Source: Schmidtea nova
Taxonomy: Eukaryota
DNA: 64,000 bases
NCBI GenBank assembly: GCA_044892505.1
Contig: CM097882.1
Span: forward strand, 283,030,001-283,094,000
Direction: 5' to 3'
Shown: piece by piece, positions 1 through 60,831 of the stretch
Layout: each line of letters starts with the position of its first letter
Numbering within the stretch: the first letter of the stretch is position 1
Notes under the pieces: generated by a model
Seen by the model: only the letters and a program-made list of their open reading frames with translations
Told to the model about the DNA's origin: nothing
Database searches by the model: none
Made by a program: the position numbers and the translations under genes

Positions 1-1
1 A

Positions 2-3000
2 ATTGGATATATCTTTGTAAGTTATCGTCTTGGTTAGCGATTTTGTACACCATTCCCTAATATTCCTGAATAATGCTTCTTTTTCACTTTCGAATTTACA
101 CTCTTCTTTGTTTTTGGACATTATGATATTTCCTCTATCTAATAGCGTTAACAGTGTTTTCTGATCACAAACGAATTTTAATAGAAATCGTAATAACGCG
201 TTTTGTCCTTTGCTATATACTTCGTTTATATTTAACACCCATGTATCATTTTCGGATCTTTTCCATTTTATTAGCTTGCGTATTGTTTTGCAGTTACCGA
301 TTTTTATTGCTTCCTTTATTATATCACCTTTGATCAGTTCATCTATTTCCCAAGTGGCCTTCTCGATTATTTGTTTGAGCATTATCTGATTTGAGCTCCA
401 TATTGCGTGATTCAAGACTGTTTTGTTTTCTCTATCGCGTTCTGTCCAGTTGAAATCGGCATTTATCAAAAGGTCTATTATTGCTTTATCCGATTTGTAG
501 ATGGCTGCTACCATTAATGGTGTTTCTTGTTCGCTATTCCCAAAACCAAGGTGTTGGTTTGTTTCCTTAGCGATTTTTAGAAATTCTTTTACTCTCTCTA
601 CTTCTCCCCATTTTATGGCGTTATGTAATGCTGGTTGTCCTCCTATGTCTTCTAGTGAAAGTATTTCTGGAATCTTTTCCAGTAGTTCTGAAATGACTGG
701 TTTTGTTGGTAGTCCCCTTGCGTAATCACTAATTATCGACTGAATATCTCTTAATATATCGTCTCTGAAATGCCATTTTCCCATTATTTCTCTGGCTTTT
801 AGTACAATTTCCTTGTTTCTTTTTTCTCGTTGATTGTTCTCTGCTTCGGTGCTTTCATTGGTTGCTCTGAGCATATTCATTCTGGCTGTCTGGGATCTGG
901 TTATTATTCGTTCTTCTGGCGCTGTGGTTATTGTCTTTGGTACTTTTTTACATCTGCATGTATTAACGTATATTGGTCGTATCAATGGTCGATTAACAAG
1001 TTTTACCTTCACATTGTTTTCCTTTTTGTATATAACTTCGTAAGGGCCTTTTCCTGGTCTTTGTAGTTTTTTAACGGTTCCTGGTATTATTTCTGGGGTT
1101 TCTATCATTACCCAATCTCCGGGTTTAAGATCATTTGTTTTAACATTTTTCTTTTGATCGTGTAGGTCCTTGTAACTTTCTTGATAAAACTTTATGTTTA
1201 GTTCTGCTGTCTTCCATATCTCTTGCATTCGTTCTTTGAATTTGGTGACGTAATCATCTTCCTCCATATATTGAGACAAAGGTGGTTGATATTCAAGATC
1301 TATTGGCATATTGCATTCCCTTCCATACATTAATTGAAATGGACTCAATTTTGTTGCTGCGTGTATCGACATTCGGTATGCCATTAGACATAGCTTTATG
1401 TACTCATCCCAATCTGTTTGGTGTTTGCTTACATAATTGGATAACATTCGAATCAATGTGCCGTTAAATCTTTCCGTTTGTCCATTAGTTTGCGGATGAT
1501 ATGGTGACGTTCGTAATTTGGCTATTCTGAAGTAATTTGTTACTTCATCTAGTATTTCGCTCATAAAATTTGTTCCTTGATCTGTTAGTATTTGTTTCGG
1601 GGTTCCGTATCGACAACATATTTCCTCTACTAAAATTCTTGCTACGGTCTTTGCTTTTTGATCCGGCATCGCAAATGCTTCAGGGAATTTAGTCAAATAA
1701 TCCGTTATTACCAATATATATTGATTCCCGTTTAAACTTTCTGGCAATGGTCCTATTACATCCATCGCAATGGTAGTCATTGGTTCCGCTGGTATTGGCA
1801 TGGGTTTTAAGGGATTTTTCCATTTCTTCCCACTATCCTTTCTTGTGGCACAAGTTAAACAGTTCTTTATCCATTCCTTTACGTCTTCGTCCATTGTTGG
1901 CCAATAATATTTTTGTCTCATGCGATTTAATGTTTTCTTATCGGACATGTGTCCTCCCAACTTTCCGTCATGGTATTGAGTTATTATCTCTTTTCGTCTA
2001 TTACCTGGCAGACACATTAATCGTTTCTCTCCATCTCGTATTAATAACCATCCTTTTTCTATTGTGTATCGATGTTGGTATTTCCTCATGTGTTCCTTTA
2101 ACTCTGCATTGTCTTTGAATACATCCATATTTCGTGAGCTTAGGAATTCTATGATGGGTCTTAGTTCTTTATCCTCTTGCTGATCTTTCTTTAACTCACT
2201 GAAATCCAAATCCTCTGCTATCATTATGCATATTCTTTGCACTTCTGGGTCTGTTAGTTCTGGAAACGTTAATCTTGACATGCAATCTGCGTTGGCATTC
2301 GCTTTTCCTGATTTGAATTTTATATCTGGTGAATATTCTTGTAATTGCATCGCCCATCTCATTAATCTGCTGGATGTTTCCTTATGTTGTCCTAGCCATA
2401 CAAGTGGTTGATGGTCTGTGGTTATGCATATGACGTGTCCCCATAATAGATATTTGAAGTGTTTTATTGCTAATATTATTGCCAATGCTTCTCTTTCCGT
2501 TACTGAATAATTCTTCTCGTGTTTCTTGAATGTTCTGCTATAATATCCGATTACCCGCTCTTTTCCCTCGTCATCATATTGTCCTAACACTGCTCCTGCT
2601 GCATATCCACTTGCGTCGGTTGCGAGTAAAAATGGCTTTTTGAAGTCCGGGTGAACCAATATTGGTGCAGTTATTAGCTTATCTCTCAATGTTTCAAAGG
2701 CTGTTTGTTGTTCGCTTCCCCATATGAACGATACGTCTTTCTTTACTAGCTCCTGGATTGGTTTTGCAATCCCTGCGTAATCCTTTATGAATTTTCTATA
2801 GTAACCGCATAATCCGAGAAATTCTTGGATCTGCGTTATCGTCTTTGGTACTGGACATTCTTTTACTTTATCAATGTTTCTGGGATCTGGTTCCTTTCCT
2901 TTTGCGGACACAATATGTCCTAAGAATGTCACTTTCTCCTTTGCCCAATCGCATTTCGATGGTTTGAGCTTGAGTTTCCATTGTCTCAATCTAACAAATA

Positions 3001-6000
3001 CATCTCTGATATCTTGGATGTGTTGTTCAAATGTGCTTGAGTAGATCAGTAGGTCGTCAATGTAAACCATGCATTGTTTTATGCCGTGGGTAACGAAATT
3101 CATACATCTTTGAAATGATGCTGGCGCATTGGTTAGTCCGAATGGCATTTTCCTAAATTGGTACAAGTCTCTTCCGATAGTGAAAGCAGTTTTCTCTTTG
3201 TCTTCCTCCTTCATTTTAATTTGCCAGTATCCGCTTTTCAAATCTAATGATGTAAAGTATGCCGCTCCTTGTAATGTCAATAACATCTCGTTGATGTCTG
3301 GTAATGGGTATGTATCCCTTTTTGTAACTGTATTTAATCTCCGATAATCAATACAAAATCGTTGTGTTCCGTCTTTCTTTTTCACCATTACAACTGGGAA
3401 TTGCCACGGTGAGCAGCTTGGTTCAATTACTTCTGCGTCTAGCATTTTCTGTACCTCTGCTTCTGCTACTGATTTTTGCGCTTCAGCTAACTTGTATGGT
3501 CTTAAAGCAATCGGCGTTTCGTCTGTTAGTGGAATCGTATGTAGTGTGACGTCACATGTCCCTAGATCTAAATCGGATGCCGCGAATATGTCTTTATATT
3601 CTATCAGTAATCTTTCTAGCTGTTTCTTTTGATCCTCATTCAATAGTTGGCTATCAATGTTCCAAGTGGGTTCTTCCTCTTTTACTCCTTCTTTTATTGG
3701 TATTTCGATATCTATCATTGGAGTTAGTTTACCTAATCTTTCATTTTCATAAATTATTTTATCCTCTTCATCGAAATTTACTACATTTATTGGGATTTCT
3801 CCGTTGTCATTCGCACTCACTAATCCCCTTGCCATTGGCAACGACTTTCTCTTTTCAAATCTTTTACTGGGTTCAAAGATCATGTCACCTTCTATTGTAG
3901 GATCTATTTTTACGAAACATATTTTCTCTCTCCGTGCTGGTACGATTATTTGTTTCGAACTTGTTACTTTTGCTTCTATTGCGCATATCTGTCCTGTCCT
4001 ATCCTTCAATCTCATTGTTCCGAGGTCAATAACTATTTCTTTAAATAATGCTGGCATTAAATCTGTGCCTATAATGCATGGTACGCTTAGTGCTGGTATT
4101 ACTGCTACGTACGTTTCGATTTCCGTGTTTTGATGTTTTATCTTTACCCACCATCTTCCGGCAACTTCTACTACTTCTTTACTGCATGCTATTACGTGAA
4201 CGTTGGTTCTCTCGATATCCCGTCTTTGTTCTTGTGGTATCCATTTTATATCTATTGCTGAGATATTTGCTCCTGTATCGATCATCGCTTCTATTTCCCT
4301 TCCGTTAATTTCGATTGTTGTAGTTAATACTGGACCGGTGTTTGATGACATTACTGCAATTGTATGTGAGTCTCCTTGCGGATCTACGCTTCTGCACCGT
4401 CTCGTTCTATAGTCTTCTGGTATCATAGGATATATGTTTGTCATCGGCATCATTTGCATTGTATTTTGTCTCATCCCTGGTGTTGGTTCTTGGTACATGG
4501 TTGGTGGGGGTGCGTAACACTTCCACATTTCCGCTGGATTCTTTTCGACATACTGTGGTACTTGATTTTTAAATACTTGACCTCCTTCGTTATCATCATC
4601 ATCGTCGTCACTGGAATCGTCTTGGGTTCTGTACCCTTTCATTCTTTCCCATAGTCCTTTTCTCTCTTTCTTTAGTTGTTGTCTTGCTTGCTCGTTATTC
4701 ATTATCTTTTTAAATTTTCGTCCCACCTCTTCATCGGTTCCTTTCATTTTTGCCAGTATTTTTAGGAGTCTCTTTATTCGGTGAATATCTTTTGAATGAC
4801 CGTGTAATACCATTGTTTTAGCCAAAAATGGTAAGAATCCTACCACCAATTTCCAATTTACTTTCTTTTCTCTTTTATAGATGTCAAAACAGGCTAACAT
4901 TTGCGTTATTATTACCCGTATTATTTGTATAATTAGTATAACACCAAGTATTCCTGCCATCATTTGTCCAAATATTAAAAATCTTCCCCACATCGCTTTC
5001 ATCATGTTTTCCGTTGCCTTCTTAAAGTGGGCTGGTGACAATAATAATTCGTAATTTGGTCCACTTTGGTAATTTGTTCCTCCTGTTATTGTTACAATAC
5101 TGGATAACACCGCTTCTCGTCTTGCCGGAAATAGTATGTTTTGTCTTGCTGCTTCTAAATCCTTTGCACTATAGAATCCCATATTGCTTACATCTACGTC
5201 TTTAAATTTTCGTCCTTTTGATAGTTGCATTAATTCAAATTCTCTTGGTGCTGGTACCTCTGTTCTTGACGGAAACATAACCCAATTTCCGTCTGGTTTT
5301 TGGTATAGTGGTCCATATGCGTTGCTACAATTGAAAGGGTTTGGTTCGAAACTTACTGGATTTATGATTCTTGTCACTGGTTGTACATATCTTACTTTCC
5401 CTTTATATTCGATTTCTAGTTCGTTAGTACACTGACCTGGTTGTAGTTTTGTCATTGTCGCTACCTTCGCATTTGTCTTTTTACATATGTATACGTACAT
5501 GACCTCTCCGACTACTCTTCCAAAATGACCTTCTCTTAATGGTAATAATGGCATTGCACTATCCGGGTTTGTGATTGCTACTGCTAATTTTGTCTTTAAT
5601 ATTTCCCTATTTAATATGCAATCGTTGTTTATTAAATCGTAATACACTTTTTGTAGTGACGCTTGTCCTCTATGGAATAGAAAATCCATTTTATTGTTCA
5701 TGTAAAGGTGTAATTTAACATCGTTCGTGTGTACTTTGCGTTTCGCACTAGGTACTTCTTGTTTTGATACAAAAATGCCGGGGTAGTTGGTTTCCAACAT
5801 GGCTACTCCGCATTTCAAGGCTGTTTTTCCTTTTACAAACCTCATTCCGATATCTGCATCTGAGGTAATTAGTACCGTTGGTGTATTTCTCATTTTAATT
5901 TGTTTTTCTTGTGTTCGGGTTTCAATCTTTTTCTCTCCCCGTACTGTGTCTTGAAGTATTTTTCCTCTTGCTGCCTCGTCTTCTTCTTCCTCTTGGAAGG

Positions 6001-9000
6001 TTTTCCCTTGTATCTCATCGAATTCTGCTTCCTTTAACAGTTGTAGTTGACATTCCTTCCCTCGTATCTGGTAGGTTAGGGTTGACATACCAGTCTGACA
6101 AGTGTTTGACTCGATTTTGCACATAGGTAGAGTTTTCATTTCTCCCGTCGTTGGATCGAAGAATGCCTCGTACGTTTTTAGTTCCACTGTATACGTATCT
6201 ATTACCACTAGGTTTGTTGCTGCTACTCCGAATATTGGATATGTTGCTCCTTGGCAGTACCCTTCTCCTCCCGTAATAGCTCCTGCTACATAATATGTTT
6301 GTTGCAATATCACTCCCGTTTTTCCTCTTATCTTTACTCTATCTCTAGTCTCTACTTCTCCATGTTTAAATAATTTTTCACAGTCTTCTCCTTGCAGCAT
6401 TACCGATTCTCTTTCCGTTCCTGGCATCACGATTGCTGAATAATGGCGGTGCCCACAATAAAAAGCAAATCTGGTTTTATAAACTTTGCATTCTCTGACC
6501 ATTGTTCTTATCAGTTCAGCTTCCTGATATACGTGGTATAATTGTCTCTTTTTTAATGTTTTTAGCTCCGTTGGGGTTGCGTCTTTACATTGTTCTGTCC
6601 CTCGTAATGAGTATTTTTCACCTAATGCCATTTGATCACAATCGAATACTTCAAATGCTGTTGCTCCGTCAGTACTAATCATCCATATTAATATCATCAT
6701 AATGATAGAACTCAGGTTTAGTGATGATTTCCCGTTTCCTGTTCCCGACTTTTCCTTTTCCAATTCTCCCAATATCTCTTCGAATTTCTTTTTCATATTT
6801 TTGGCTTGGTTTTTCTTTTGGTTCGTTTTTGTGAATGTTTCCCATCCTCCTTTACTGATGATGTACGGTTCTATTTCTTTCTCTATAATTTTGGCTGTAT
6901 TCTTTATATGTCTTTCAAGTGCTGTGGGTTTCAGTCGACCTCTACTCAGTGTCAGCAGATTGTAGATGGTGTATGCCATAGCTATTAAATATTTGTTATC
7001 CGTCTCTGCTCCTTCCGTTACCTTCTTTATCAACATCGTGGTTCCTTGCCAATCTAGGTGGTTTGACCTTGTCTTCTCTTTTATTAATTCTGGTAGGATT
7101 GGTGCGATGGCGCTATGCAGTGATTTCGCCCTTTCGCTTATTTCATTTATTCTCCACCATTTCTTTAATTCTGGATCGATTATTGCCAGTATTTCCATTA
7201 ACATCTTTGATATCCATTCCTCGCCTTGGTATGTTTGTGTTGTTTCTTTTTCTTTCGTTTCGGCTATTTTATTTAGTTTCTTTAAACACAAATCCCATTG
7301 ATCCCGTCTTTTTTCCTCTCTTGATTTTATAACTACATTTGCTGGATCCATCTTGGGTCTACCTCTAGGTCGTTTATCCATTGTCGTGCCCGTTTCTACT
7401 AATCTTGTTTCTCGTCCAGTTTCTTCTGTGACGTCTCTTGGTTCATTGGCTCTTTCTTCTAACCATCTTTCCATTTCTTGTGTGAATTGTACGTTTTCTA
7501 CATTTGCCCTCCTTGCTTCCTCTTCTGCTATTTCATTTACTTCTTCTATGATTATTTCTTGTTCGACTTCATCTTCGGTGTTGGTTACCGGTATTGCTGT
7601 TGGTAATTCTTGAATTCTTTCGAAAATATTATCATCTTTCTCTTTTGTTAGCTCTATTAACTCCTCTAACATATCATCGCTATCTGTAAAAATTTCGTCT
7701 TCATCGTATGGTTCCGGTGGTGTTCTTTCTCTTGTCTCTCTTGGTGTTGTTCTAGTTTGTTCTGAGCTTGTTCCTGGAGTCATTACCGATTTCATTGGGC
7801 TCGGCGTACTCATACTTCCTTTTGGTTTCTTTTCCTCTTTCAATTTCAATGGTTGGCCTGCTATTGCTGCCACTGTCAATGTATTTGCGATATCTAATTG
7901 CGCTGGCGTTATTCCAATTTCCAAGCTGTTATCTAATGATCGTCCTTGGTGTTGTAAATGGAATGGTGGTTCATATCTCAATTTCTTTTTAATGTCTCGA
8001 ACTTTCTCCGCTATCCCTACCCAAAACTCTTCCTTTTCTTGGTTCGGATATACTATTCTTAGGTGTACTTTCTGTGGCGATTCCTGCGAGAATTCTTGGT
8101 TTCTCCATTTTTTAATTACGTGATCCAATTGTTCTGGACACCACTCGTTAACTCTTTTGTATTCGGCGATTGCTTTTGCTACTTTACGCAAGCATGTTAT
8201 GTCTTCTCCATTAACTACGAAAAAATCTGCGAGACCTTTTACTACTTTTCTCTTGCCGTGCGCATTGGTTTTTAATATTTCGACAAATTCCTCTGTTTTT
8301 TGTTTCTCTCTTTCCAACCACATGGTTGCCGTTTCTGGTCCGTCTATATCAGCTGGCATGGCTTTTCTTGTTACCATACAAACCCTTCCCGTTTCCGGTT
8401 TGTGATCGTCTTCTATGCCTATTTCGTATTCCTCTTCGTATTCGCCTGCTTTTGGTTCCCAACATTTTCCTCGTTCGTTCCACCGTTTTTCTACAGGTGT
8501 TCGTAATCGTCTGTTGAGATTGAGTTCTTCTAATACATCTTCCCATTCTGGCCAAATCCGCCAATTTCGATAAATGTCTACTATTTGTTGTAATTTATGC
8601 ACAACTTCTTTTTGTCGTTCCCGTTCTCTTTTCTCATCCTTAGCCGTTTCTCTTGGTGTATCGTCCATTCTGATAACGTGGATGGTTTGGTGATTATCCC
8701 ATATACCAATTTTATATAGCCGTCTTTCATCGTGATCCCATAATACATGTTCGTTGTATTTCATGATTATGTCATCTTCCCATTCTTCTTCTGGTTCTCT
8801 TTGTAATAGTGTCTCGTTGATGACATTTACTAATTCTTTTATGGTACAATCTGCTACCACTTCAATTTCTTTGGTATCCTCATTAGGTAACTCTACTGCA
8901 ATTTTCAGATCTGTTATTTTCCCTTGTCTGAACATTGCTTTTCCCATTTTGGCAATTACTTTTCCGTATGAGATCTGTGACCATCTCGTGTGACTTGTGT

Positions 9001-13794: not shown

Positions 13795-14256
13795 TTATAA
13801 ATAAACTACAATTTTATCAGCTACAGAGAAATTGCACATGGGGCACTCATCACACTTATTCGCACAGTTTTTACAGAATCGAAAATGTCCACATGGTAAA
13901 AACATTATTTGGATTTCACTGTTTTCGCATATGTAACATTGTTTATATTGTTTTGCTGCCTCGACCCCTTGCGACATCCATCGGTTATATGTTAGGCTTA
14001 ACTGCTGTTCTATATGTCGGCATCTGATATTCAACTCGGCATCCTCTAATCGTGCTTTGTACCATTTATATCGCGTATTTATATCGAGTTTATTTACTTT
14101 CTCTATGATTTTTATTAACTCAGTTGTTTCCTCAGTTTGTGTCGTAGGTTCCTCATATTCGGATGCTCTTATTCGGGTTATTTTTTCGCAGACTGTCTCA
14201 AATGTTTCGTTCTCGGTGTTGAAAAATTCCTCGATTTCTTTCAGTTTTTCCTCCAT
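13795..14256 (-). CDS. IAP/MDM2-type C-terminal RING-HC protein (153 aa, no BIR domain) between PBS and gag
   Basis: CYICENSEIQIMFLPCGHFRFCKNCANKCDECPMCNFSVADKIVVYL-stop: C3HC4 spacing with the short hydrophobic tail typical of IAP RINGs; coiled-coil-like N-terminus. Confidence 0.85.
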   Translation of the reverse strand: MEEKLKEIEEFFNTENETFETVCEKITRIRASEYEEPTTQTEETTELIKIIEKVNKLDINTRYKWYKARLEDAELNIRCRHIEQQLSLTYNRWMSQGVEAAKQYKQCYICENSEIQIMFLPCGHFRFCKNCANKCDECPMCNFSVADKIVVYL

Positions 14257-47729: not shown

Positions 47730-49134
47730 TTAATTGAATTTTAACTCAAAACTTTCTTCACCATGGCAATATTGGACAATTGTTCCTTTTCGCACATACG
47801 TCTTCCCTGCATATGTTATCGAATTTTCTATTTGCAAATTTGAACCCACTTTTCTTTTCCTAGTTTCTTTGGCTGTTGAACCCTTTATAAGTGTTGACTT
47901 TGCTCTTCCACTAATTGAGCTTGTAAATATTGCCAAACTTTCTTCGATGGGCTCTAGACTAGTTTCCTCTGCAAAATTCAATTGTATTTCAATTTCCATT
48001 ATTGATGGTTCTTCTATTGTCAGATCCACTGTTGTTGTCATTTCCGATGTGCTCTGTGTTGCTCGTAAATTTCTGTATTCCTCCAGTGAATATATTTTTG
48101 AGGGCTGTTTCCTGGGAATCATCACATCATCGATCCATTGACTCTCCACTTTCAAATAAACTTTTCTAATGCTTTTCACATCTTCCAACGCAGTGTGGAT
48201 GCTTGTTTGTGTTTTTCCCGCATAATTCTTCAGTGATTGTTTTTAACTTAAACCATTCTCCTTTTCGGCTTACCTTCATTGATTTTAACACTTGCGCTGC
48301 TGCTAAATCTCGAATGCCATATACTTTATTGATCCAAATTCCAAGATTATTCAATTCCGCTTGGAGATCATGACCAATCAGTATTTTCCCTATGGTCAAC
48401 CTCTGAATATCTTTCATCTCCTGATATTGATCTGCCTGATTTCTACTGGCCACTTCCGTTATTCCGTGGATTTTGGAATTAAAATGTCTTATTTTCCCTC
48501 TTGGTGTAATGTATGTATTTTTTATAATTTTTCCATAATAATTTAGGATTGCGATTGACAACGGAATCATTTTTCCGCTTTCGGAGCTTCCATATTCCGC
48601 ATCGATAAACAAAATTCGATTACGGATTTCTTCTATATCCATCTCCTTTCTAACAAATGAGAGCTTCCTTTTTAACATTTCATCTGAAATTGCCATCAAA
48701 TTCTCATCATTAGCTTCTGTCGGATGTGTACTTGGAATTTCTCCAGCTTCATTTTCAATTCTGGTTTCGATAACCATTATGGCATCCTCGTTTGCGGCTC
48801 GCAGCAAATTGAACATTATTTCCCTCTGCAGTTTCCACGTAGTAAATTTTTCCAATTCCTTCCGAATCTGATTCCTTTCGTTCAACATTTCTACCGTGCC
48901 TTTTATTATGTGGAGGTAATATTGTTCTTTTCTTGCTAACTGCATTTCCTCTAATAACTTCATTTTGTTGTTTCTGTGCACTTTTAGAATTTGTATTTTC
49001 ATTCTTCTGTCATCACTTCGAAGGTAGTTGGGAATTTGCAGATTGTTGTTGATCTGGAATTTTTGTCCGGCATGGCTTCTGCTGAGTCTGGCGTAACTGT
49101 CGTATACCGATCTTGGCCATTGTAATTGTTCCAT
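47730..49134 (-). pseudogene. REX4/ISG20-like DEDDh 3'-5' exonuclease, frameshifted near 48190-48215
   Basis: ILFIDAEYG (ExoI), KIHGIT, ILIGHDLQAEL (ExoII), IRDLA, FKLKTITEEL, then in the adjacent frame IHTALEDVKSIRKVY (ExoIII HxxxxD). Confidence 0.85.
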
Positions 49135-49551
49135 TTGCTAAAATTATTGAATTTTTAATTTACTTTAATTTTAGAATTTGAAACTATGATCGAGGTTGGG
49201 CACCCAAAGGATATCGTCTCAATCAATAGTTGTATAAATAAAAATATTTAATTAATTACCTATTTATTTGAATTTGAAAAATTCGGAATCTCAGAAATTT
49301 TGAAATTCAAAATTTTGAGTTTTTGAAATTTTAAATCTAACGGTTTAACACGTATCCTATATACCCTCTTAAATTTCCTTCCCCTTTTTAATTTCTTCTT
49401 TTTATCCAATCAAATTCATTTGCCAAGCGATCCTTGAAAGCAGTTTTACATCAAAAATAAAAAGTGTTTCATAAAATGTAATGCTATCAATAAATAAATA
49501 ATAAATTCGACACTACTGTTACTCATATTGCATGCAGAAATCATTATCTTA

Positions 49552-50720
49552 CTACACAAATGTCTCATCGTAGACAAACCAAGGTCTCGAAGGTTCGGAT
49601 TGATTTGCCGGAGATTGAAATGATTTTTCGAATATGCACAATACGATAGCAATGATAACTGTTAGAATTACTGCTAAAGAAATGATGATTATAATCAATG
49701 TTATGCACATTTTTTCATTATTCATTTTTTGGAACAATTTAGTTTGATTTTTTACAATTGATTTTTTGATAGGAATGTTATTAAGAAATGTTGTGGTTTG
49801 ATATTGGTGTGAATCGTTTGGGTATGCTTCATCATATGAGACTTGAATGAGTTTATTTTCGACAAACGTTATCTGCCATAGATTTGAATATAGAGTACGA
49901 CGATAATATTTGATTTTTACGAGAACTAATTTCGACATTGGGTTTGCTTGCGATTGTTGAAAAATTATTGTTTGAGATTGTCTTTTGCTGTCTAGAATTG
50001 CTTGCATTTTCCCATAACAATATATAACCGCCTTTTGATTCGGGTCTGTTTGCCTGGTGACTTTTATTGCTTGATGGTAGATGTGAAATTGAACTCTTCG
50101 TTTCATTAATTAATGTTATCGTTTGTTGACTGGTGTGAACTTTAACCCATTGATTCTCTGTATTGGTGCCATTTTCATATAAAGTCTTCTCATAATAGTG
50201 AATCACAACATTATAAGTCTGAAATAACTTTAACTTAATATAATTTATGAAGGGTTTTCTACTATTCAATGTGTCTATTGCATAATTTTGGAAAATCGTT
50301 TTTACTTGTTGGGATTCTTGGGGTTCCCAATATACATTAATACTATTTATCGAAGGTTCAATTGATACCAAATTGTTCCGATTTTTTGTCCAAATTTCTA
50401 GGCGTATTATATTACGTATTTCCGTAGTATTCTTTTTAGGATCTAGCTGTGCTACCAGCCAGGGATATTTGTAATTCATTGTCAGATGACGTGCAACATG
50501 ATAATTATTATTATAATTCAATTTCACCGGGGGTTCAAAATAATTTAATAAATTATTTATTTCTACTTCCTCATCTTTTTCACAGGAATAAATCCACACA
50601 ATCTGAGTACATGTTGCAAATGTATTGATTCTCTCTAACAATGGGATTCGTTTTGTTGCAACCGTTGGAAGAAATCGTACTGCATTCGCACACAAAACAT
50701 TCAACATCATTACTGTAGAA
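49552..50720 (-). pseudogene. Second type-I membrane glycoprotein downstream of integrase (frameshifted)
   Basis: Signal-like KILLISTVMMLNVLCANA in ORF 49853-50977, a beta-rich ectodomain with NxS/T sites, and TM MCITLIIIIISLAVILTVIIAIVLCIF plus a short tail in ORF 49552-50106. Confidence 0.6.
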
Positions 50721-50967
50721 ATTAATAAAATTTTATTAATGTAGCTTGATGGGGCTGGATTTCTATTATACCTCTGTTTGATTGCTTCATCTTCCTTCCG
50801 TTTTGATCGTAATGGGTATTGTTTTAACTCTTCCACCGGCACCTTTTTACAGCGGTTTACATGAACAACTATTGTTCCAGCTTTTTTATTATTCTGTGGA
50901 CGCAACTTTAGATTAGTCTCTGTAGCATCACATACTACATATGGTCCTTTAAAAGGTCTTTGCAGTT

Positions 50968-53640
50968 TCACTGACAATCCTTTAGTCGGCTCTGGTTTAT
51001 TTCATACACTAAATCTCCAATTTTAATATCATGCGCATGTGCGCGTTTATCATAGCACTCTTTATAAGCTTCTTGATGGTGTTTTATTTTAAGACCTGCT
51101 TGACCCCATACTGACTGCAATCTCTCTTGCATAATTACTTTATAATCGGATACGTCCATATATTGGGAAATCGGTGGCGGAAATTTCAAATCAATTGGCA
51201 TATTATTACGTCGTAAATACATAAGGTAGAAAGGTGTTTCACCGGTACTTTCATTAACTGCATTCCGATATGCAAATAGGCATGGTTTAATATACAAATC
51301 CCAATCTTTTTGCTTTCTATTTACATAAGAAGATATCATATTTATTAGTGTTCCATTGAATCTTTCCACTAAACCGTCTGTTTGTGGATGATAAGGTGAT
51401 GTACTTATTTTCATTATTCCGAATAACTCCGTGACTGATTTGAATAAATCACTTTGAAAATTTGTTCTTTGATCTGTAAGTAATTTTTTTGGTGCTCCAT
51501 ATCGGAATATTATGTTTTCAACAAATATTTTTGCTACTGTCTCTGCTTTTTGATTTGGCATAGGATAAGCTTCTGGCCATTTTGTTAAATAGTCACAAAA
51601 GACAATAATGTATTTATTTCCATTTGTCGTTTCTGGTAGTGGACCCACGATATCCATTGCCGTCATTTCCATCGGCGCTTGTGGTACTGGCATTGGCTTT
51701 AAAGGAACTTTAATTTTCTTTCCTGTATTTCTCCTGGTTAGACATATTTCACACGTATGACACCACTGTTTGACCTCTTGCTCCATCGTGTCCCAATAAT
51801 ATTTTTGCTTTAATCTCGATAATGTTTTACGTGCTGATAAATGTCCTCCCAATGCTCCATCATGATACAACAACAGTAATGATCTTCGATGTTTTGTTGG
51901 AACGATAATTAATAAATTTTCATTTTTCACACATTTTAGCAAACCGTCATGGACAACATATTTATGTTTTTCCTCAACAACATGTTTCCAGTCACTCTCT
52001 TTTTTGATGGTGACAGCATGTTGACGTAGCCGATTTAATTCAATATCACTTTCTTGATCATTTTGTAATTCTTTTAGATTATTTACAGTTTTAATTGCCA
52101 TAAATATTGTATTTTCATAATTTATTTCATTTCTACCATCCACATTTTCGTCATTAATTCTCGATAACGCATCGGCATTGGCATTTGACCTTCCTGTACG
52201 GTACTTTATATCGAAATCATATTCTTGCAGCGCAATTGACCATCTGATTAATTTGCTGGCTGAATCTCTGTGCCTCATGAGCCATTGCAGTGGATTATGG
52301 TCTGTAAAAACAATAAACTTTCTACCGATTAGGTATTGTCTGAAAGTAGTTATTCCATATACCAACGCTAAAGTCTCTTTTTCGATTGTAGAATAATTCT
52401 TTTCATGTGGCTTTAATGTTCGACTAGCATAAGCAATTACATGATTTTTTTCACCTTCCACTTGTTGACCCAACACTGCTCCTAATGCGAAATTACTGGC
52501 ATCTGTCATTAATATGAACTGTCTCTTAAAGTCTGGACATCTCAAAATCGGTTGTTTTAATAAACTTTCTTTCAGAATATCAAATGCATTTTGTTGAGCC
52601 GTCATCCATTTAAATTTAGTTTGCTTTTTAAGTAGTATATTCAAAGGTTGTGCTACATGCGAAAACTTTTTAATAAATTTTCTATAATAACCTGCTAAAC
52701 CAAGAAATTGTCGAACTTGATCAACATCTTTTGGAATTGGATAATTTTTGATTTTCTCTACATTTTCGGGATTTGGCTGTAATCCACGTCTTGAAATAAT
52801 ATGACCCACATAAACAACTTCATACTTTCCCCATTCGCATTTTGATGGTTTTATTTTTAGATTTGCTTTTAATAATCTTTTGAATACTGTTTCAACATCT
52901 TTTAAATGCTCTTGAAAACTGCCTGAAAATATTATTATGTCATCAATATAGACTAATGCATGTGGAATGTCTCGCAATACGAAATTCATGCCTCTCTGAA
53001 AAGTAGCAGGTGCTCCAGTTAATCCAAATGGTAAAACGTTAAACTCGTATAGGTCTTTACCATCTGAAAATGCAGTTTTTCTCTTGTCATCCTCTTTTAC
53101 TTTAAATTGGTTGTATCCTTTATTTAAATCAATTACTGTGAAAAATTGTACCTCGCCCATTTGATCAAACATTTCCTGTGGAACTGGAATAGGATATGTA
53201 TCTTTTCTCGTGACCTGATTCAACTTTCGATAATCTACACAAAATCGCAAATCTCCATCTTTCTTTTTAACAACCACTATCGATGATGACAATGGTGATG
53301 AACTGTCTCGTATAATATTGAATTCCTTCATTGCTTTAATTTGTCGATCACTTTCTTCTTGATAAACGTAAGGAATTCTATATGGTCTCAATTTGATAGG
53401 AGTTTCATCCAGCAAAGGTATCTCATGCTCAATTATTTGAGTAAGTCCCAAATCGTATTCATGTTTAGCAAACACACTTTTGTATTTCATCAATAGTGCT
53501 GTAAATTCTTGCTTTTGCTCAGCTGTTAAATCATTGCTTGTAACTTGAGGTTGCTTATAAATTTTGATATTTCTCGGTAGCTTTTGAGCTTCTTCAGCTT
53601 CGATTTTTGTCAGTTTCCCCACTTTTGTTTTGGGTTGCAT
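50968..53640 (-). CDS. RT-RNase H-integrase portion of Pol (element 2)
   Basis: FCVDYRKLN, LPFGLTGAPATFQR, YIDD, TDASNFALGAVL, TDHNPL, YHDGALGGH..CEIC, MDIVGPLP, PYHPQTDGLVERFN. Confidence 0.97.
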   Translation of the reverse strand: MQPKTKVGKLTKIEAEEAQKLPRNIKIYKQPQVTSNDLTAEQKQEFTALLMKYKSVFAKHEYDLGLTQIIEHEIPLLDETPIKLRPYRIPYVYQEESDRQIKAMKEFNIIRDSSSPLSSSIVVVKKKDGDLRFCVDYRKLNQVTRKDTYPIPVPQEMFDQMGEVQFFTVIDLNKGYNQFKVKEDDKRKTAFSDGKDLYEFNVLPFGLTGAPATFQRGMNFVLRDIPHALVYIDDIIIFSGSFQEHLKDVETVFKRLLKANLKIKPSKCEWGKYEVVYVGHIISRRGLQPNPENVEKIKNYPIPKDVDQVRQFLGLAGYYRKFIKKFSHVAQPLNILLKKQTKFKWMTAQQNAFDILKESLLKQPILRCPDFKRQFILMTDASNFALGAVLGQQVEGEKNHVIAYASRTLKPHEKNYSTIEKETLALVYGITTFRQYLIGRKFIVFTDHNPLQWLMRHRDSASKLIRWSIALQEYDFDIKYRTGRSNANADALSRINDENVDGRNEINYENTIFMAIKTVNNLKELQNDQESDIELNRLRQHAVTIKKESDWKHVVEEKHKYVVHDGLLKCVKNENLLIIVPTKHRRSLLLLYHDGALGGHLSARKTLSRLKQKYYWDTMEQEVKQWCHTCEICLTRRNTGKKIKVPLKPMPVPQAPMEMTAMDIVGPLPETTNGNKYIIVFCDYLTKWPEAYPMPNQKAETVAKIFVENIIFRYGAPKKLLTDQRTNFQSDLFKSVTELFGIMKISTSPYHPQTDGLVERFNGTLINMISSYVNRKQKDWDLYIKPCLFAYRNAVNESTGETPFYLMYLRRNNMPIDLKFPPPISQYMDVSDYKVIMQERLQSVWGQAGLKIKHHQEAYKECYDKRAHAHDIKIGDLVYEINQSRLKDCQ

Positions 53641-54696
53641 CTAAATAGTTTTTGTGCCACAATTCGCTATTCGCACTGGCACTAATTTATTTTTGACTCT
53701 CACTATCTCATCACACATAGGTAAATCATATTTTTCTATTAATTTTAGATTTGGTTCGAATATGCATTCTTCACCTGGTGCATTCGTTACATCTGCATAA
53801 TATATTATTTCGCTTTTTGATGGTATATCAACTAATTGATTTATGAAAACTTCTCCTACCTCCTCAATAACCTCACCAGTTTGACCTTTTATTATTTTCC
53901 CGGTATTTAAATCAAGTGAAATTCCTTTTAACTGTTCCATAACGTCCATACCGATAAGGCATTTTACGGGGCTTCTTCTCATTACTGTTACCCAGTGAAT
54001 AATCTCCTGATCTCCAATCTTCAATTTTGCGTTAACTTTTCCTATAATATTCAGCAGATTATGCGACATTGATTTGATACGCTTATTTGTCGGCCTCATC
54101 TCTTTTCTTTCTCGACTCGTTAATAATTCCTCTGACACTATCGTATGACTTGAACCTGAATCTAGTAAAGCTTGCACTCTTCGACAATTAAACAAAACAT
54201 CGATCCGAGGTTGTTTTCCTTCCACCTTCATTGTCATTAATGCATAACTGCACGGTAATCCAAGCATATTTTTGCGTTCGATTTCCGCACTTGTTGGTTC
54301 AATTTTCTCTGATGTAATTCGAATCTCATCATCTAATGGTTTCATCTCTTTTAATTTTTCGTTTGGATATACAGGTGCTGTTGGTACAAATGTTGGAGTA
54401 TACCATCGTGTTAACGTATCAATTCCGCCTAATTTTGGCATTGGTTCGAGCAAGAACCTAGTTTCTGGTTCTGTTTTATTTTTCAATATCCCTCTTCGCA
54501 AATATTTCAACTCGGTATTACCTCCGTCATTGTTATTGTTCTGACTATTGATCTCTTCCGATTGACATAATGATTCCTCACTTTTTTGATCCTTTCTCAA
54601 TTGTGCTCTTACATTTGCCATTTCTTTGTATTGATGATTTGTAATGAAAAATCTGGCCAAAAATGGATACAACCGATTATTATTTTCCATGACCAT
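53641..54696 (-). CDS. Env cytoplasmic tail/linker plus aspartic protease (element 2)
   Basis: VQALLDSGSSHTIV...CLIGMD; same frame as the RT ORF, separated from it by a single TAG. Confidence 0.92.
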   Translation of the reverse strand: MVMENNNRLYPFLARFFITNHQYKEMANVRAQLRKDQKSEESLCQSEEINSQNNNNDGGNTELKYLRRGILKNKTEPETRFLLEPMPKLGGIDTLTRWYTPTFVPTAPVYPNEKLKEMKPLDDEIRITSEKIEPTSAEIERKNMLGLPCSYALMTMKVEGKQPRIDVLFNCRRVQALLDSGSSHTIVSEELLTSRERKEMRPTNKRIKSMSHNLLNIIGKVNAKLKIGDQEIIHWVTVMRRSPVKCLIGMDVMEQLKGISLDLNTGKIIKGQTGEVIEEVGEVFINQLVDIPSKSEIIYYADVTNAPGEECIFEPNLKLIEKYDLPMCDEIVRVKNKLVPVRIANCGTKTI

Positions 54697-57600
54697 CCGG
54701 AAATAGCGTATATTCTATGTGCTGACAACACTTGCGATACTATCACTTTCATTGTTACTGCAATTACGTAGATTCCAATTAAACCGGCACAAGCTTGCCC
54801 TAAGAACATAAATTTACCCCAAATCTTTTCCATTGTTTTATATGTGGCTCTTTTGAAATGATCGGGTGTTAACAAATATTCGTAGTTAACTTTTCCTTCT
54901 CCATTTGGTAATATTGTATCAACCATTTCTGAAATTACCCTTTCCTTTTTTGATGGAAATAGCAAGTTTCTTTGAGCCTCTTCGATGTCTTCACTCGCAT
55001 ACAACCCCATTTGTGCCATTTTATTCAATGACGTAAAATTTACCAAATATTCTAAATTTGTTAGCTCTAATTTATCAGGAGTTTTAACTCCTCGGTAGTC
55101 TGGTAACGCTACCCATGAATCCGGCGTTAAGCGATATAACGGAGCAAGTAATCAATTACATTGTAATATTTTTGGTTTAGCCTGTACTTCGAGCAATATT
55201 CGAGTGATTGGTTCCATAAATCGTAACTTGCCACCAACACTTACGGGTAATTCATTCGTACATTGTTCATATTTCGCAATCTTTACAGCAACTTCCTTAC
55301 ATTTGAAGCTGTACAAAGCTTCTCCAAAAATTCTCGTGAAGACCCCACTTTCCGATATCAACATAGGTGCTACCAAATTTGGGTTTGTGACTGCCATAGC
55401 CATCCGATTTCGAAGAATCTCTTTATTTAATTTACAGTCATTTAGGATCATTTCTCTATATACATTCTCCATGACGTTCTGACTAAAATGGAATAAATAA
55501 TCAATTTTATTATTAAAATAGTGCGTTAATTTAATGTCGCCTGTATAAACTCTCGTTTTTGCGTCTTCAACTATTCCCTTTGATACATAGACACCTTTAT
55601 AATTTGTTGCATACACCACTCTTCCACATTTATTAGTAGGTTCCTTTTTTATGAAACGCATGCGGTCCGTTGGCGATGTTGACATCAACACTGCACTTGT
55701 TTGTCTGGTCATTATCGGAATCGATTTAATTGACTCTTTTGGTTTATAATTCAGAGCAAAACTATCAGGTCTTTCTTTGAATTGTTCTCCGATTATTTCT
55801 TTAAAATTCATTGTCTTTAAATGAGCCAAATTACATTTATTTACTTTAACATCATAAACTAAAATTGATTCTCCCGTTTGACAATTTGTCTGTTTCATAT
55901 TGCAAAATGGATGTGTTTGCAATTTACCTGTATCATCATCAAATGCTCCTTCGAACTCTCTCAATTCTGTAAGGTACTCTTCAAGTACTACCGTTTTATC
56001 CACAATTTTACCATCCATTTTATACGGTTCACCTTCGCAATCACCATTTGCTTTCATGGTTCCTTTCACAACTACTGTCTCTCTCGTTCTATGATTCAGT
56101 TTGGCTTTTAATCGAATTTCCGAACTTATTTTTAATTCTCCGGTTTGAAATGCTGTTAAACCATTTTCTGGAAAAATTTCAACGGGTCTAGGTATTGCTC
56201 TCACTTTTATCAATGACGTGTGACTCCATTTTCCACAATAAAACACAAATGTTGTATGTTTGACAATACACTCTCTAACTTTAGTTCGTCGTAAATCTGA
56301 CTCTTGATACACATGGTATTTTACATCATTTTCGATTTGTAATTTACTCGGATAGGCATCTGGGCATTCTGACATATCTACCACTGAGTAAATCTTTCCA
56401 ATTTCGGTTTGGGAGCAATCATATGCAACCAATGACGTCGCTTGTGCAATAACTGTACACAAGATAATCATTGTAAACATCAACCATGGGAATATTCCGA
56501 TTCTCTTTGTTTTCGAACTGACTTTATCACATAATTCTCTTGTCTTTTCCTCATTTTCTTTTATATCTAGTGGTGGACACAATATCTTCCAGCCACCCTT
56601 TTCTTTTACCCAATTTATTAAATATTCATTAAGCATCCTGGCTGCCGTATCTATTAAATCATCCAACTCTTTCGACTTTACAAACGCATACGTTCCTATC
56701 TCTAAAATCGCATACGTCAAACTCGTCAATACTACCTCCCTATTCACTTCCTTTTGGATCAACTCTTCAAAAACCTTTCTCTCACAGAAATTATTTCCTC
56801 TACCAAATCGTTGTACTACTTCAGGAAGCCTATTTTTCAATTCTTTGACTATCTCTTCCACATCTTCCTCCACTTGTAATTCTATCTTAAACATTGGATA
56901 TATCGTTTTAAGCAGATGCTTTAATATCTGTTTTGTTTCATCTACTTCTTTTTCAACTCTTACCAAATTTCTCTTTATTTCATACAAAGTTCTAGGTTTC
57001 CCATTTTTATTGCTAACTTCATTAAGCACATCTGATTTTTGTCTTTCCGCTTCCTGTACCTGATCTCTCACTATTGGATTCTTCTGAAAACTGCCATCTA
57101 TAATAGTCTCATTTTCTTCAGTTTCTTCGATTTCCTCTTCCCCTTCGTCTGATTCTGAATTATCTAATTCTTCCATTCTTCCTACTTGTACTTCCTTCAC
57201 CGCTACTATTCGATTTATTACATATCCATTACTTCCCTCCATACTTAAATATCCCTCTTCATTTACTTCTAACGGTAAACACCCGCAATCATATAGATAC
57301 TCGTCATCATCTAGCAGTTCCCCTTTATACCTCAACGTTATGATTCCATCCGTTCCTAACATTTTCGAAGCTCTTCTACGTACCCTTTTTACCTTTGTGC
57401 ACCAATGCTCTTCAGTATATTCCGTCTTTCCACGCTCTTCATAATCTATTGCTATAACTAAATGATTCTGCTCGACTCTGTCTTTTCTAAGCTCTTTACC
57501 CATTTTCCTCAATAAGCTTTTAAGCTTTTTACTGTATCTAGTTCTCCCAAATAAATATGGTCGTATTAAATTCGCGATTTCTACTTTATCTTTAGATTCA

Positions 57601-58520
57601 AGCTCACATTCCTCGATCATTTTTAATTTGTCATTTATTTCATTTTCATCTCCACTATATAATGCATCATTTAACTCTTTTGTAATTTCAACTGGATCTC
57701 TTTTAATTATCACACAATCTTTTTGTAACGTAATTATTTGCAACTCGTTTTCATTACCTGGAATAAACCCACAATCTATTAAATATTCGTTATCTTCTAA
57801 TTTTCGATTTTTAAATCTCAACTCTCTCATTAATCCATCTCGTTTGTCTGTTAATTTATTTTTTAAATCTCTCACACAATCATTGGCGTCACAACGTATA
57901 CAATTTACACTTTTATCACTCTCATCAACAACATCAATAAAAATAAAATCTAACCATTCCTTTTCTCGAAACATTTTCCCAAATATTTTCATCATATCTT
58001 TTATTTCGTCTCTATCCTTTGAATTCACTTCACAATAACTCGCACATACATTAATTACACTTTTTAATTTCCTCATATTCAATGACATTTGACTCAATTC
58101 TTTTAGCGAACTCATTATTTTGGATGAATCTTCTCTTCTCGCTTCTATTAATTTTTCAATTCTTGTTATAATCATTGTCGATAATTCAATTCCTAGATCA
58201 TCTTTCACATCTTTTCTCCTCGATTCTTCTTCCGTCTTTTCTTGTGGATCATACATCATATGGTTATCCATTTCCTCGTCGGATTCAAATTTAGACATTA
58301 GCCGATCCAAACGTCGACCTATTTCTTTAACTTCGCTTTGGATTCTTTCTTTGAAATCATCGGGCTGAACAAATGCTACATTGTCATTCAGAGATTTATC
58401 ATTTTGAAATCGGATTGTCTTCTTTAGTATTGGTCTTTGGAACTTGTCGTTATTTCTGGGACATGATCTGGCGATATGTCCATACCCTCTACATGAGTGG
58501 CATTGAATTTGACCTTGCAA
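54609..58520 (-). pseudogene. CCHC - Ubl x2 - Bcl-2-like - signal peptide - gB/chuvirus-like Env - TM (element 2), with an in-frame TGA at 55152
   Basis: ORFs 55152-58520 and 54609-55046 share a frame. Ubl at about 57730-57955 and 57260-57465; BH1/BH2 at about 56580-56790; signal IGIFPWLMFTMIILCTVIAQA; env motifs co-linear with element 1; TM FMFLGQACAGLIGIYVIAVTM. Confidence 0.85.
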
Positions 58521-58586
58521 ATTAACCTTGTCTCTTTGTGGTGACGGTGATGTTGACGGAGATCTTGATTTAGCATAACAATTTCT

Positions 58587-59632
58587 CTACACATGTCCTT
58601 TCTTTCCGCAATTGTAGCAGTGCAGAGTATCATTGTTTCGTTGTTCCACATTGCTAAATTTATTAAAACTTTTATCACCATTACCTTTCATCCACTCTGG
58701 CCACATTCGCCTTGGGCTCTGCGTACTACCTTTGAACCAACATTGACTACTATTATGACCCATCTTTTGGCAATTATTACATTGGATTGGAGTTGGGCTT
58801 CTTTGGGATCTGTTTTTGAGCCAACATTGATTCACATGATGTCCCATTCTTTGACAATGGCTGCATTGTATTGGCATTTCTTTCTCCTCCATTGGAGCAT
58901 TAGTTGTTTGACTTGATTGGAATTTGGCTTTGAATTTTGGCGAAGGACTGCTATATTGTTGAAATCTGTTGTTCTTCTCAGGAGTTACTGATCGTTCTTG
59001 TTTTTGTTCCATCATTGCAAACGATTCTGAATTTGATTGTGTACTTTTCAAATTAAGCTCAATTTTCATGGCCTTTTGATTAATTCATCGAAGTTGTTGA
59101 AATCGACATAGCATAAAGCCTTTTTGATTTCCTTTTTAACTCCCGATAAAAATTGATCTTGCAACAGTTCCCTTACTTGCTTTGCCACTTCTGGTTGATC
59201 GGGTTTGGTTTCGAAAGCTTTTTCTGCAAGAGTCGTTAGATGATAAGCAAATTCACTTACAGATTCATCAGATTTTTGCATTCGATTGTAAAATTTTTGG
59301 CGCATAATCCTTTTGATATCTCCTCCGATCAATTTAGCGGCTAATGAATCTTTAAGTCTCATCCAGTCATTTCCGATTGTCCTTTTGTCAATTTGTTGCC
59401 ATACTTCTCTGGCTGCTCCCTTTAAATACAAGGGCAATCTTTGTATCATCGTGGCTTGGCTCCATCCATACGCATTGGCATACATATAATAGTCTGCCAT
59501 GAAATCGACAAATTCAACTGGATCTCCTCCATATTGGTTAACTGGTAGCTTTTGACAACTAGCGAGATCATTGCCATTTCCTGCATGACTTGTCGACATC
59601 GGCGCTTCATCATTACTATTTGAATTGCTCAT
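58587..59632 (-). pseudogene. Gag of element 2 (frameshift near 59066; TAG inside the third zinc knuckle)
   Basis: YGGDPVEFVDF..RLPLYLKGAAREVW, then CSHCQRMGHHVNQC, CNNCQKMGHNSSQC, CYNCGKKGHV*RNC. Confidence 0.9.
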
Positions 59633-60016
59633 ATTATTCTGATATTTCGTTTGGCTTCTTAATTGACAAAATGGTCGAGTTGGTAACGTTTTCTCTCGTC
59701 TAAATTTTAAAATATCAATTATTAAATTTACCCTTTATTAGTCTTTATTTTCTCAAACTTCAATTTTCACTTTTTCACGATTCAACTTTTATTCACACAA
59801 AAATTTCCAATTTATTTCTAAGAATTTACTTTTCAATATAATTAATTTATTTTCACAATTCTTTTTCAACTTTTTCAATATTTTCAATTTATTTTCAATG
59901 CTTTCAGTTTCAAATTTCTCTCAATATCTACTCTATTCACTAACGATATCACCGCTTTTCACACGTTTTATTGTAATTTATTCAATTAATTCTCCACCAA
60001 TTCTTCACCGACTTTG

Positions 60017-60034: not shown

Positions 60035-60037
60035 AAA

Positions 60038-60831
60038 TGTTGGGTATTTTGTTGAAAGTCGGTTCTAATTTCTGACTCCTGGTGTTCTTTTAACAAATAA
60101 TTAACCCAACACAATAACCTTTATTTCAATATCACACTTTATCACAATGATTGAACAATATAAGAACTGTCTTTTCACACTGAACTTAACTGCTTTCAAG
60201 TCACTTGCTGCAAGGGATAAGTCTCCCAACGGAAGATCTCCCTTTCTGGTGCGCAAACAAATGAATTAAATTTTACTCTACAACACTACCTTTTCGGACT
60301 CTTCTTCTAATTTTAATCTGTTCATTTTGAAATCTTATCTCTTCGACCACTGGCCCCACATTGCAATTTGCTTCTCCTTTTATAGTGCTTCCTCCTTAAT
60401 GCTTGATTGTTCTGTCTCCCAATTTTGACATTTTAATCTACGACTCAAATTAAACTGTCATATTGTAATTTAGTAGCTCTCGCCGTTTCCACATCCTTAG
60501 AGCAAATTGAACTGTCACTTCGCTTGAGTGGGTTTCTCTCCTCTCTCGGGCTCTCCATTGGCTCGGGTTTCCCATTGTCTCGGGCTTTCCCTTAGCCAAT
60601 TAATTCTTAATTAATATTTTAAATTTTTAATTGTTTCTTTCTGGGGACCCCCCATCGATTTTATTTTTATTTATTTGAATTTGTCTCATAATTTGGCACA
60701 CACCCATACCAATTTCCCCCATGATATATTAATTTTAAATTTTATTAATTTTTTAATTAATGTTTTAATATTTGGTGATTTTTGCAATTTTATTACTTTT
60801 AAATTTTGAGTCACTTTGACAAACCCCAACA
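60038..60831 (-). repeat. 5' LTR of element 2 (794 bp)
   Basis: Direct repeat of 45278-46071, adjacent to the PBS. Confidence 0.98.

Follow-up and report, generated by a model that had tools for sequence, protein, structure and literature searches.

The Burro elements of dugesiid planarians (Burro-1 to -4 and GYPSM1) are retroelements with long terminal repeats (LTRs) and an in-frame envelope protein (Env), and they are known to carry BIR, ankyrin, BCL2-like, ubiquitin-like (Ubl) or SUMO-like, and MATH/TRAF domains (PMC6431247, section 7). In the same section, which dates from 2019, they were considered as possible proviruses that may meddle with apoptosis and ubiquitination. The BIR+RING protein of Burro1, called B-IAP, was reported to protect stem cells (PMC13465017, excerpt, citing a 2026 paper), and BURRO1 was found to be under PIWI control in planarians, animals that rely on adult stem cells protected by PIWI-mediated silencing (PMC8532177, excerpt). 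Ty3/gypsy elements with a gag-env-pol order and a gB-type Env have been described in flatworms, nematodes and bryozoans (PMC13524379, excerpt). Here, we describe two elements, A and B, in a 64-kb stretch of the 1.25-Gb genome of Schmidtea nova (contig CM097882.1, positions 283,030,001 to 283,094,000), which is called the window below. Both are envelope-bearing Ty3/gypsy elements of the Burro type. Judged from substitution ratios, their cargo of RING, Bcl-2-like, Ubl, ankyrin, exonuclease and membrane-protein modules is a fixed family trait under purifying selection, and it probably serves the elements much as accessory genes serve complex retroviruses.

Two independent insertions

Elements A and B both lie on the minus strand and are separate insertions, 27 kb apart. 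Element A measures 28.3 kb and runs from window position 17830 to L002:9502, where L001 and L002 denote the sequence beyond the window end that continues it. Its LTRs of 3,245 bp (5' LTR, 14586..17830; 3' LTR, L002:9502-L001:2746) have TG...CA ends, are 100% identical and are flanked by a 4-bp target duplication, TTTG. The polyprotein gene (2..12160, continuing to L001:6738) is one open frame of 5,140 codons from stop to stop. It encodes, in this order, Gag (10811..11701, with three CCHC knuckles recognized by sequence and zf-CCHC), three modules of a helical unit and a Ubl, a Bcl-2-like domain, Env, protease, reverse transcriptase (RT), RNase H and integrase (the last four at 1436..4321 by Pfam, with the catalytic words present), two ankyrin clusters and a second membrane protein. 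A leader open reading frame (ORF) with a RING precedes it. Four further frames follow it in L001: one of 119 codons, a complete TRAF-like gene, one with a coiled coil and a small one with a transmembrane (TM) segment.

Element B measures 15.6 kb (45278-60831), with LTRs of 794 bp that differ by two mismatches (5' LTR, 60038..60831; 3' LTR, 45278..46071, with a polypurine tract ahead) and a target duplication, ATAT. Its polyprotein gene (49552..59734) lies in eight pieces, which together encode Gag, two helical-Ubl modules, a Bcl-2-like domain, Env, protease, RT, RNase H, integrase and a second membrane protein, an order that forms a single frame in sister copies; an exonuclease gene is separate. 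The polyprotein gene contains four frameshifts and three in-frame stops and the exonuclease gene one frameshift. That these eight breaks are accompanied by only two LTR mismatches suggests that B was copied from an already defective template. The RTs of A and B are 51% identical and their Envs 35%.

In the initial annotation, the cargo of both elements was read as one combined toolkit. All listed domains are present, with the qualifications given below, but the toolkit is a sum over two unlinked insertions of separate families: no single element in the window carries the full set, and the exonuclease profile and the fibronectin-III (FN3) profile each match one element only. Compared across the families described in the next section, the list is to be read as a cargo pool common to a clade, and not as the content of one element.

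Conservation of the cargo across families

Both elements belong to families with many copies. In a genome search with the LTR of A, the best 40 matches formed 20 pairs, 19 of which were spaced by ~25 kb. With the exonuclease of B as the query, 150 matches were scored; 62 of them had 94-100% identity and the other 88 had 71-80%. The domain order was the same in nine out of ten B-type copies, the tenth being matched over the exonuclease alone, and it is common to 3-4 subfamilies of B and to two of A.

Between three B subfamilies, the ratios of nonsynonymous to synonymous substitutions (dN/dS), rough figures because many dS values are near saturation, were 0.05-0.29 for the Ubls, 0.20-0.39 for the Bcl-2-like domain, 0.14-0.35 for the second membrane protein, 0.07-0.26 for the flanks of the exonuclease and 0.10-0.50 for the helical units (one interval reaching 1.05), next to 0.04-0.08 for Env and 0.02-0.04 for RT. 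In the exonuclease core, dS was saturated at a dN of about 0.2. When A was compared with its sister subfamily, using two of the four fetched copies, the values were 0.08-0.10 for the RING ORF, 0.07-0.30 for the Ubls, 0.07-0.08 for the Bcl-2-like domain, 0.06-0.10 for the ankyrins, 0.15-0.32 for the FN3 protein and 0.15-0.16 for TRAF. Overall, the cargo ranged from 0.05 to 0.50 in B (with the one interval of 1.05) and from 0.06 to 0.34 in A. Among 21 young A copies, i.e., the window copy and 20 others chosen for open frames and hence biased toward constraint, the corresponding polymorphism ratio (piN/piS) was 0.14 for RING, 0.11 for the Bcl-2-like domain, 0.21-0.22 for ankyrin, 0.19-0.42 for FN3 and 0.15 for TRAF, with 0.05-0.47 as the range for cargo other than Env. 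With values of 0.01-0.02 for Env and 0.01 for RT, Env is, on these polymorphism data, constrained like RT in the young A copies, and such strong constraint is what cell-to-cell spread would predict.

If the cargo were captured DNA carried along neutrally by a few copies, the eight breaks in the window copy of B and a piN/piS of 0.97 in one region (see below) would be in keeping with it. However, the cargo is present in every subfamily examined and its frames are open while synonymous sites are near saturation. This explanation is already largely refuted by dN/dS values well below 1, and we give it practically no credence. The initial annotation had named neutral evolution of the cargo, or its absence from the families, as an outcome that would overturn its proposal; instead, the cargo is a family trait with ratios mostly well below 1.

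The pool extends to other members of the clade. A third family of ~23 kb, abundant in the genome (L123-L126 and L127-L130; LTRs 99.8% identical), carries a leader RING, Ubl, protease, ankyrins, TRAF, a 399-codon IAP of the BIR...RING type and coiled-coil/TM ORFs, and in two out of two copies no match to Gag, Env, RT or integrase was found between the LTRs. Judging by this gene content, it is likely a helper-dependent cargo carrier. A metagenome contig (L066:3-11517) represents a third RT lineage in a tree of local rows and this contig, a tree with no named Burro sequence in it. It encodes pol, a second protease-like domain after the integrase, ankyrins, a second membrane protein (fn3, E 0.17), a helical-Ubl ORF, and a catalytically dead exonuclease ORF beside an intact DEDDh ORF. 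Helical-Ubl or Bcl-2-like modules were also found in 11 further proteins, two of which contain Gag.

The cargo could also be explained by a host-transposon mutualism, in which it is kept mainly because its anti-death action protects the stem cells and regeneration of the host, which in return tolerates the elements. In favor are the stem-cell protection reported for the BIR+RING protein of Burro1 (PMC13465017, excerpt) and the abundance of a pol-less family with a BIR-IAP, TRAF, RING and ankyrins. Against this stand the lack of a BIR in A and B, the fact that selection along lineages with many young, dispersed copies fits selection for replication, and the Env, FN3 protein and exonuclease, which stem-cell protection leaves unexplained. 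Mutualism as the main reason for the cargo therefore appears unlikely to us, and it would be compatible with an accessory-gene role rather than exclusive of it.

RING, Bcl-2-like, Ubl and ankyrin modules

The leader ORF of A (13795..14259, minus strand) consists of a helical N-terminal part and a C-terminal C3HC4 RING, as supported by Pfam (zf-C3HC4_3, E 2e-11), solved relatives and dN/dS. The best solved relatives are the RINGs of XIAP and cIAP (E 2e-10); this type of RING is also found in MYLIP, MEX3C and CGRRF1. No BIR was detected by Pfam in A or B, and no BIR-like spacing was found on the coding strand in the window, L001 or L002. Hence, the RING is of the IAP type, as annotated, and restricted to A, but the protein is not an IAP.

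Bcl-2-like domains are present in both elements (A, 6806..7243; B, 56547..56999). The Pfam scores of E 0.09 in A and 8e-4 in B are both under the curated cut-off, and a profile of seven rows matched Bcl-xL, Bax and Bcl-2 at E 2e-4 to 2e-3, mainly across BH2. All eight PDB matches in one search, and all 60 among the matches listed (of 130), were cellular Bcl-2-family chains. BH2, a helical domain of ~140 residues and a hydrophobic tail after it are kept, with GGW as the sole invariant. In the Bcl-2 family, the BH1 motif is NWGR, and this motif is absent from the aligned domains. A structure model had a pLDDT below 50 over this part. Thus, the assignment holds as to BH2 but not as to BH1. The hydrophobic segment that follows in A (6671..6727) is, by hydropathy and context, the predicted signal of Env and possibly also a tail anchor of the Bcl-2-like domain; in B, too, a predicted Env signal follows the domain (Pfam, profiles and hydropathy).

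The helical-Ubl modules are located at 7841..9613 in A and at 57192..58199 in B and were identified by profiles, the third module of A by homology to a related family. A profile of 13 Ubl modules matched single ubiquitin-fold chains at E 1e-5 to 1e-4, the fold being significant as a profile only, and Foldseek gave three ubiquitin-like rows at high to very high probability. In a model of the whole cargo, residues 13-247 alone were partly confident, and no Foldseek row reached E<=0.001. The Ubls had been annotated as tandem domains. The ubiquitin fold is borne out by the profile, but the Ubls are internal to the polyprotein and not directly adjacent: a helical unit of ~75 residues precedes each of them (8081-9613 and 57477-58199). 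Comparison of this unit with the N-terminal domain of TFIIS (TND/LW) gave three TND rows at Z 8.5-8.9, but helical repeats without relation to TFIIS scored equally, and none of 29 profile matches was a TND; a TFIIS-N-like fold is a weak lead.

The ankyrin repeats were correctly annotated, and they are specific to A, with a first cluster at 41..808 (Ank_2, E 1e-10) and a second one past the window edge (E 3e-3). The TRAF-like gene of A (L001:4782-6191, beyond the window) is intronless and encodes a RING, zinc fingers, a coiled coil and MATH. Neither ankyrin nor MATH/TRAF was found in B by Pfam and profile scans.

The exonuclease

The separate exonuclease gene of B (47730..49137, minus strand), identified by profiles, is of the ISG20/SDN1 type. 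Pfam RNase_T matched at E 2e-4, and a profile matched ISG20L2 at E 6e-16 and the group of ISG20L2, ISG20 and SDN1 at E 6e-16 to 3e-11 over the whole catalytic domain. The D-x-E of ExoI and the H-x4-D of ExoIII are kept, and the acid of ExoII is Glu in B-type rows, whereas L066 and L068 have Asp. The protein further has an N-terminal domain of 170 residues and an acidic tail, and the alignment contains no conserved Cys cluster. The window copy is frameshifted between ExoII and ExoIII; all three motifs are in one frame in 25 of 30 B copies, with a piN/piS of 0.25 in the core. A profile search did not find the exonuclease in A. Two side observations concern its relatives. In L038:509-8407, a copy of the B family, a deletion drops the second membrane protein and joins the integrase in frame to the exonuclease ORF. 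In L079:293-2095, a 601-codon homologue has lost the catalytic residues, and no A- or B-type domain was matched in the 25 kb on its 5' side; from this arrangement, it is possibly a domesticated copy.

The ISG20/SDN1-type subfamily acts on single-stranded RNA. Clearance of dsRNA, which the initial annotation had proposed by analogy with arena- and coronaviruses, finds no support here: a search of the PDB with the profile gave five matches at E<=1, none of them viral, with no chain of arenavirus NP or coronavirus nsp14. No match to annotated phages was found, and the five matches on viral contigs were weak, at 21-32% identity. These results bear on the origin of the whole toolkit, which may be imagined to have been acquired from large DNA viruses or from arena- or coronavirus-like RNA viruses. 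The Env family is common to mononegavirus-like viruses, and a planarian nidovirus has both ankyrins and a DEDDh exonuclease (PMC6211748, excerpt). Yet the best matches of that nidovirus ankyrin were flatworm proteins, according to the same excerpt, and the nearest solved relatives of the RING, the Bcl-2-like domain, the Ubls and the exonuclease are cellular (XIAP/cIAP, Bcl-xL/Bax, ubiquitin and ISG20L2/ISG20/SDN1). Viral acquisition is thus very improbable, and the annotated resemblance to large DNA viruses is reduced to an analogy. Most likely, to judge from these matches, the modules derive from cellular genes, are exchanged between families and have converged on functions seen in large viruses.

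The exonuclease also invites the explanation that the cargo serves replication or assembly of the elements, i.e., folding, scaffolding, end trimming or proofreading for a genome of 15-30 kb, or membrane targeting, and not manipulation of host defenses. In rotifer LTR elements, DEDDy/DEED exonucleases were suggested to process 3' ends (PMC5408684, excerpt), the Ubls are integral to the polyprotein and cannot be conjugated, and BH1 of the Bcl-2-like domain is lost. However, it is the larger element, A, that is without an exonuclease, contrary to a need for proofreading, and the TRAF, the IAP-type RING and the full IAP of the related family all point to death and innate pathways and have no evident part in replication. 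A role confined to replication consequently seems even less likely than mutualism.

Envelope and second membrane proteins

Env of A (4874..6658, TM segment at 4907-4963) is a mononegavirus/chuvirus-like fusion glycoprotein that matches Pfam Monjiviricetes_fusion (PF24664) at E 4.5e-69, or 4e-69 as set against 2e-52 for Env of B (54609..56435; Pfam), which has an in-frame stop inside. Hydropathy shows an arrangement of signal, ectodomain and TM segment twice per polyprotein, in Env and in the second protein at the end, which is located just past the window in A (L001) and at 49552..50750 in B, where it is frameshifted. The two annotated membrane glycoproteins are therefore present in each polyprotein, with glycosylation deduced from sequons.

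The second membrane protein of A contains four repeats with an invariant C-W, C and C, which are predicted from structure modeling to be FN3 repeats. The model of one repeat had a pLDDT of 80, and its structural neighbors among the matches listed (50) were all FN3-type by title, at Z 6.6-8.0, which is middling on the scale of the tool. Of 14 profile matches, 11 were FN3-bearing proteins, and all ten rows of a structure atlas were FN3 at high scores, which serve as a lead only; no single Foldseek row reached E<=0.001. Profile searches revealed no likeness between the second membrane proteins of A and B. A sister subfamily of A (L057:3394-7200) has two diverged FN3-repeat membrane proteins, in tandem and in one frame. 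Positive selection on the repeats, considered because of the 91-100% identity among young copies, was rejected, as every ratio was below 1.

A model for the function of the cargo

We regard it as probable, with some reserve, that the cargo works like the accessory genes of complex retroviruses, keeping the producing cell alive and helping the element into neighboring cells. The polyprotein would cross the membrane of the ER four times, in the order signal-Env-TM, pol, signal-second protein-TM. Signal peptidase would release both surface proteins, and the protease of the element the cytosolic modules. Cellular Bcl-2 has a hydrophobic tail anchor, and the Bcl-2-like domains end ~40 residues ahead of the Env signal. 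Possibly, the signal helix of Env stays on the Bcl-2-like domain as its tail anchor. The domain would dampen apoptosis, and in this it probably does without a BH1 groove of the classical kind. A YAG is found at <=3 nt from the ATG in all six separate accessory ORFs, the acceptor-like AG of the RING ORF of A lying 3 nt ahead of its ATG. In a control that was not matched to the AT-richness of the intergenic sequence, 18 of 984 ATGs satisfied a looser rule. These acceptor-like AGs before each start codon suggest that separately spliced or trans-spliced mRNAs give rise to the RING, TRAF and exonuclease. The RING, TRAF, ankyrins and Ubls may redirect ubiquitin and innate signaling, while Env would fuse membranes and the FN3-repeat protein may act in attachment or cell contact. 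The exonuclease might trim single-stranded RNA or DNA ends, most likely clearing by-products of the element or small RNAs that trigger silencing; this is the weakest step, which we put forward tentatively.

Several observations speak against this model. The Bcl-2-like domain has sub-threshold Pfam scores, no BH1 motif and a poorly supported structure model. Purifying selection tells that the cargo has a use but not which, and the ratios have the shortcomings mentioned above: saturated dS, young A copies selected for open frames, and a helical-unit interval that exceeds 1. The C-terminal part of the second membrane protein of B looks neutral, with the piN/piS of 0.97 among 27 young copies; one copy has lost it by a deletion, and another subfamily has it in altered form. 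The third family, without pol and Env, has reached a high copy number, so that Env in cis is not needed to spread. The acceptor control was unmatched. Finally, the IAP for which protection was reported has a BIR and the RING of A has none.

The accessory-gene model can be widened to the whole clade. Burro-type elements would then be complex infectious retroviruses of invertebrates, with a class III fusogen and an FN3-repeat attachment protein from one polyprotein, spliced accessory genes, swappable modulators of death and ubiquitin, and a captured ISG20-like nuclease directed against small-RNA defense, spreading from cell to cell in a host rich in stem cells, alongside pol-less, IAP-bearing satellites. 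This full version is doubtful.

Other features of the window

The LTRs of A contain two ORFs (15115-15711, 198 codons; 16016-16546, 176 codons in the 5' LTR), which are open in the sister subfamily at 29-38% identity and belong to no Pfam family. In the leader of A, between the RING ORF and gag (12660-13320), there are three short tandem arrays (~43, 40 and 61 bp), and a 172-bp inverted repeat, mostly N-masked, lies just outside the 5' LTR (18106-18449). The AT-rich 27 kb between A and B contains fragments of a DNA polymerase B of viral or organellar type, of Tc5/pogo and DDE transposases, and of the protease of another retroelement (34382-35149, 38367-39586, 25474-25881 and 42569-43090).

Relationship to known systems

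Poxviruses encode ankyrin, vBcl-2 and RING proteins, and baculoviruses IAPs and a viral ubiquitin, which are host-interfering domains of the same functional classes as the cargo. No specific sequence link with these proteins was found, so the comparison remains one of analogy only. The same holds for the exonucleases of arenavirus NP and coronavirus nsp14, which are marked by zinc fingers (PMC7968707, excerpt) and with which a functional class is shared and no specific sequence link was found. With cellular ISG20, ISG20L2 and SDN1, the exonuclease of B shares the catalytic domain and the ExoI and ExoIII motifs, whereas the Glu in ExoII, the N-terminal domain and the acidic tail differ. A DnaQ-like exonuclease has been listed as a known accessory domain (PMC6338049, excerpt). 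In bdelloid rotifers, LTR elements and Terminons have an exonuclease as ORF3 after pol, with DEDD changed to DEED and proposed roles in end processing or silencing (PMC5408684, excerpt). The rotifer enzyme, however, is RNase D-like, of the DEDDy type and showed no departure from neutrality, according to that excerpt, whereas the one described here is ISG20/SDN1-like, DEDDh and under constraint. The elements with gB-type Env (PMC13524379, excerpt) are similar to A and B in the position of Env between gag and pol and in their multiple young copies, but differ in that the excerpt describes no accessory cargo and mentions neither ankyrin, nor exonuclease, nor Burro.

The closest relationship is to Burro and GYPSM1. 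Elements A and B share with them the order of protease, RT, RNase H and integrase between LTRs with a target duplication, a giant ORF in which Env stands in frame after gag and before pol, and Ubl and BCL2-like domains ahead of Env; the ankyrins and MATH/TRAF are shared by A only. A conserved domain to which Pfam assigned no family sits between protease and RT in both A and B, at the position of the dUTPase-like domain of Burro. Burro elements reach ~30 kb or more with multi-kb LTRs; A measures 28.3 kb with 3.2-kb LTRs, and B, at half the size, 15.6 kb with 0.8-kb LTRs. The BIR of Burro is missing from A and B and present in the third family of the same genome. Similarly, B-IAP of Burro1 (PMC13465017, excerpt) is a retroelement-borne, IAP-type RING protein tied to stem-cell survival, but here the BIR+RING gene sits in the third family, and the separate RING of A is only 42% alike over 43 residues. 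Conversely, a DEDDh exonuclease, a second membrane protein with FN3 repeats and a leader RING without a BIR are not mentioned in PMC6431247 (section 7), and the literature searched yielded no account of Burro elements with an ISG20-type exonuclease or an FN3 protein, although the primary Burro papers or their supplements may hold them.

Thus, the initial interpretation, i.e., elements that may spread from cell to cell while suppressing apoptosis and RNA-based defense, is partly supported, the planarian type of host that it supposed agrees with the Burro architecture of the elements, and most of the idea was already in print as the idea of Burro proviruses that act on apoptosis and ubiquitin (PMC6431247, section 7). 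The exonuclease gene and the predicted FN3-repeat second membrane protein are the parts for which no precedent was found in the literature searched. These two offer single-gene handles on counter-defense and on cell-to-cell spread, respectively. If true, the movement of an element from cell to cell with death and silencing blocked would matter for the access of transposons to stem and germ cells and for the reported mutualism of Burro1. Compared with what has been described of Burro, the findings push a known but thinly described group toward the life style of complex retroviruses.

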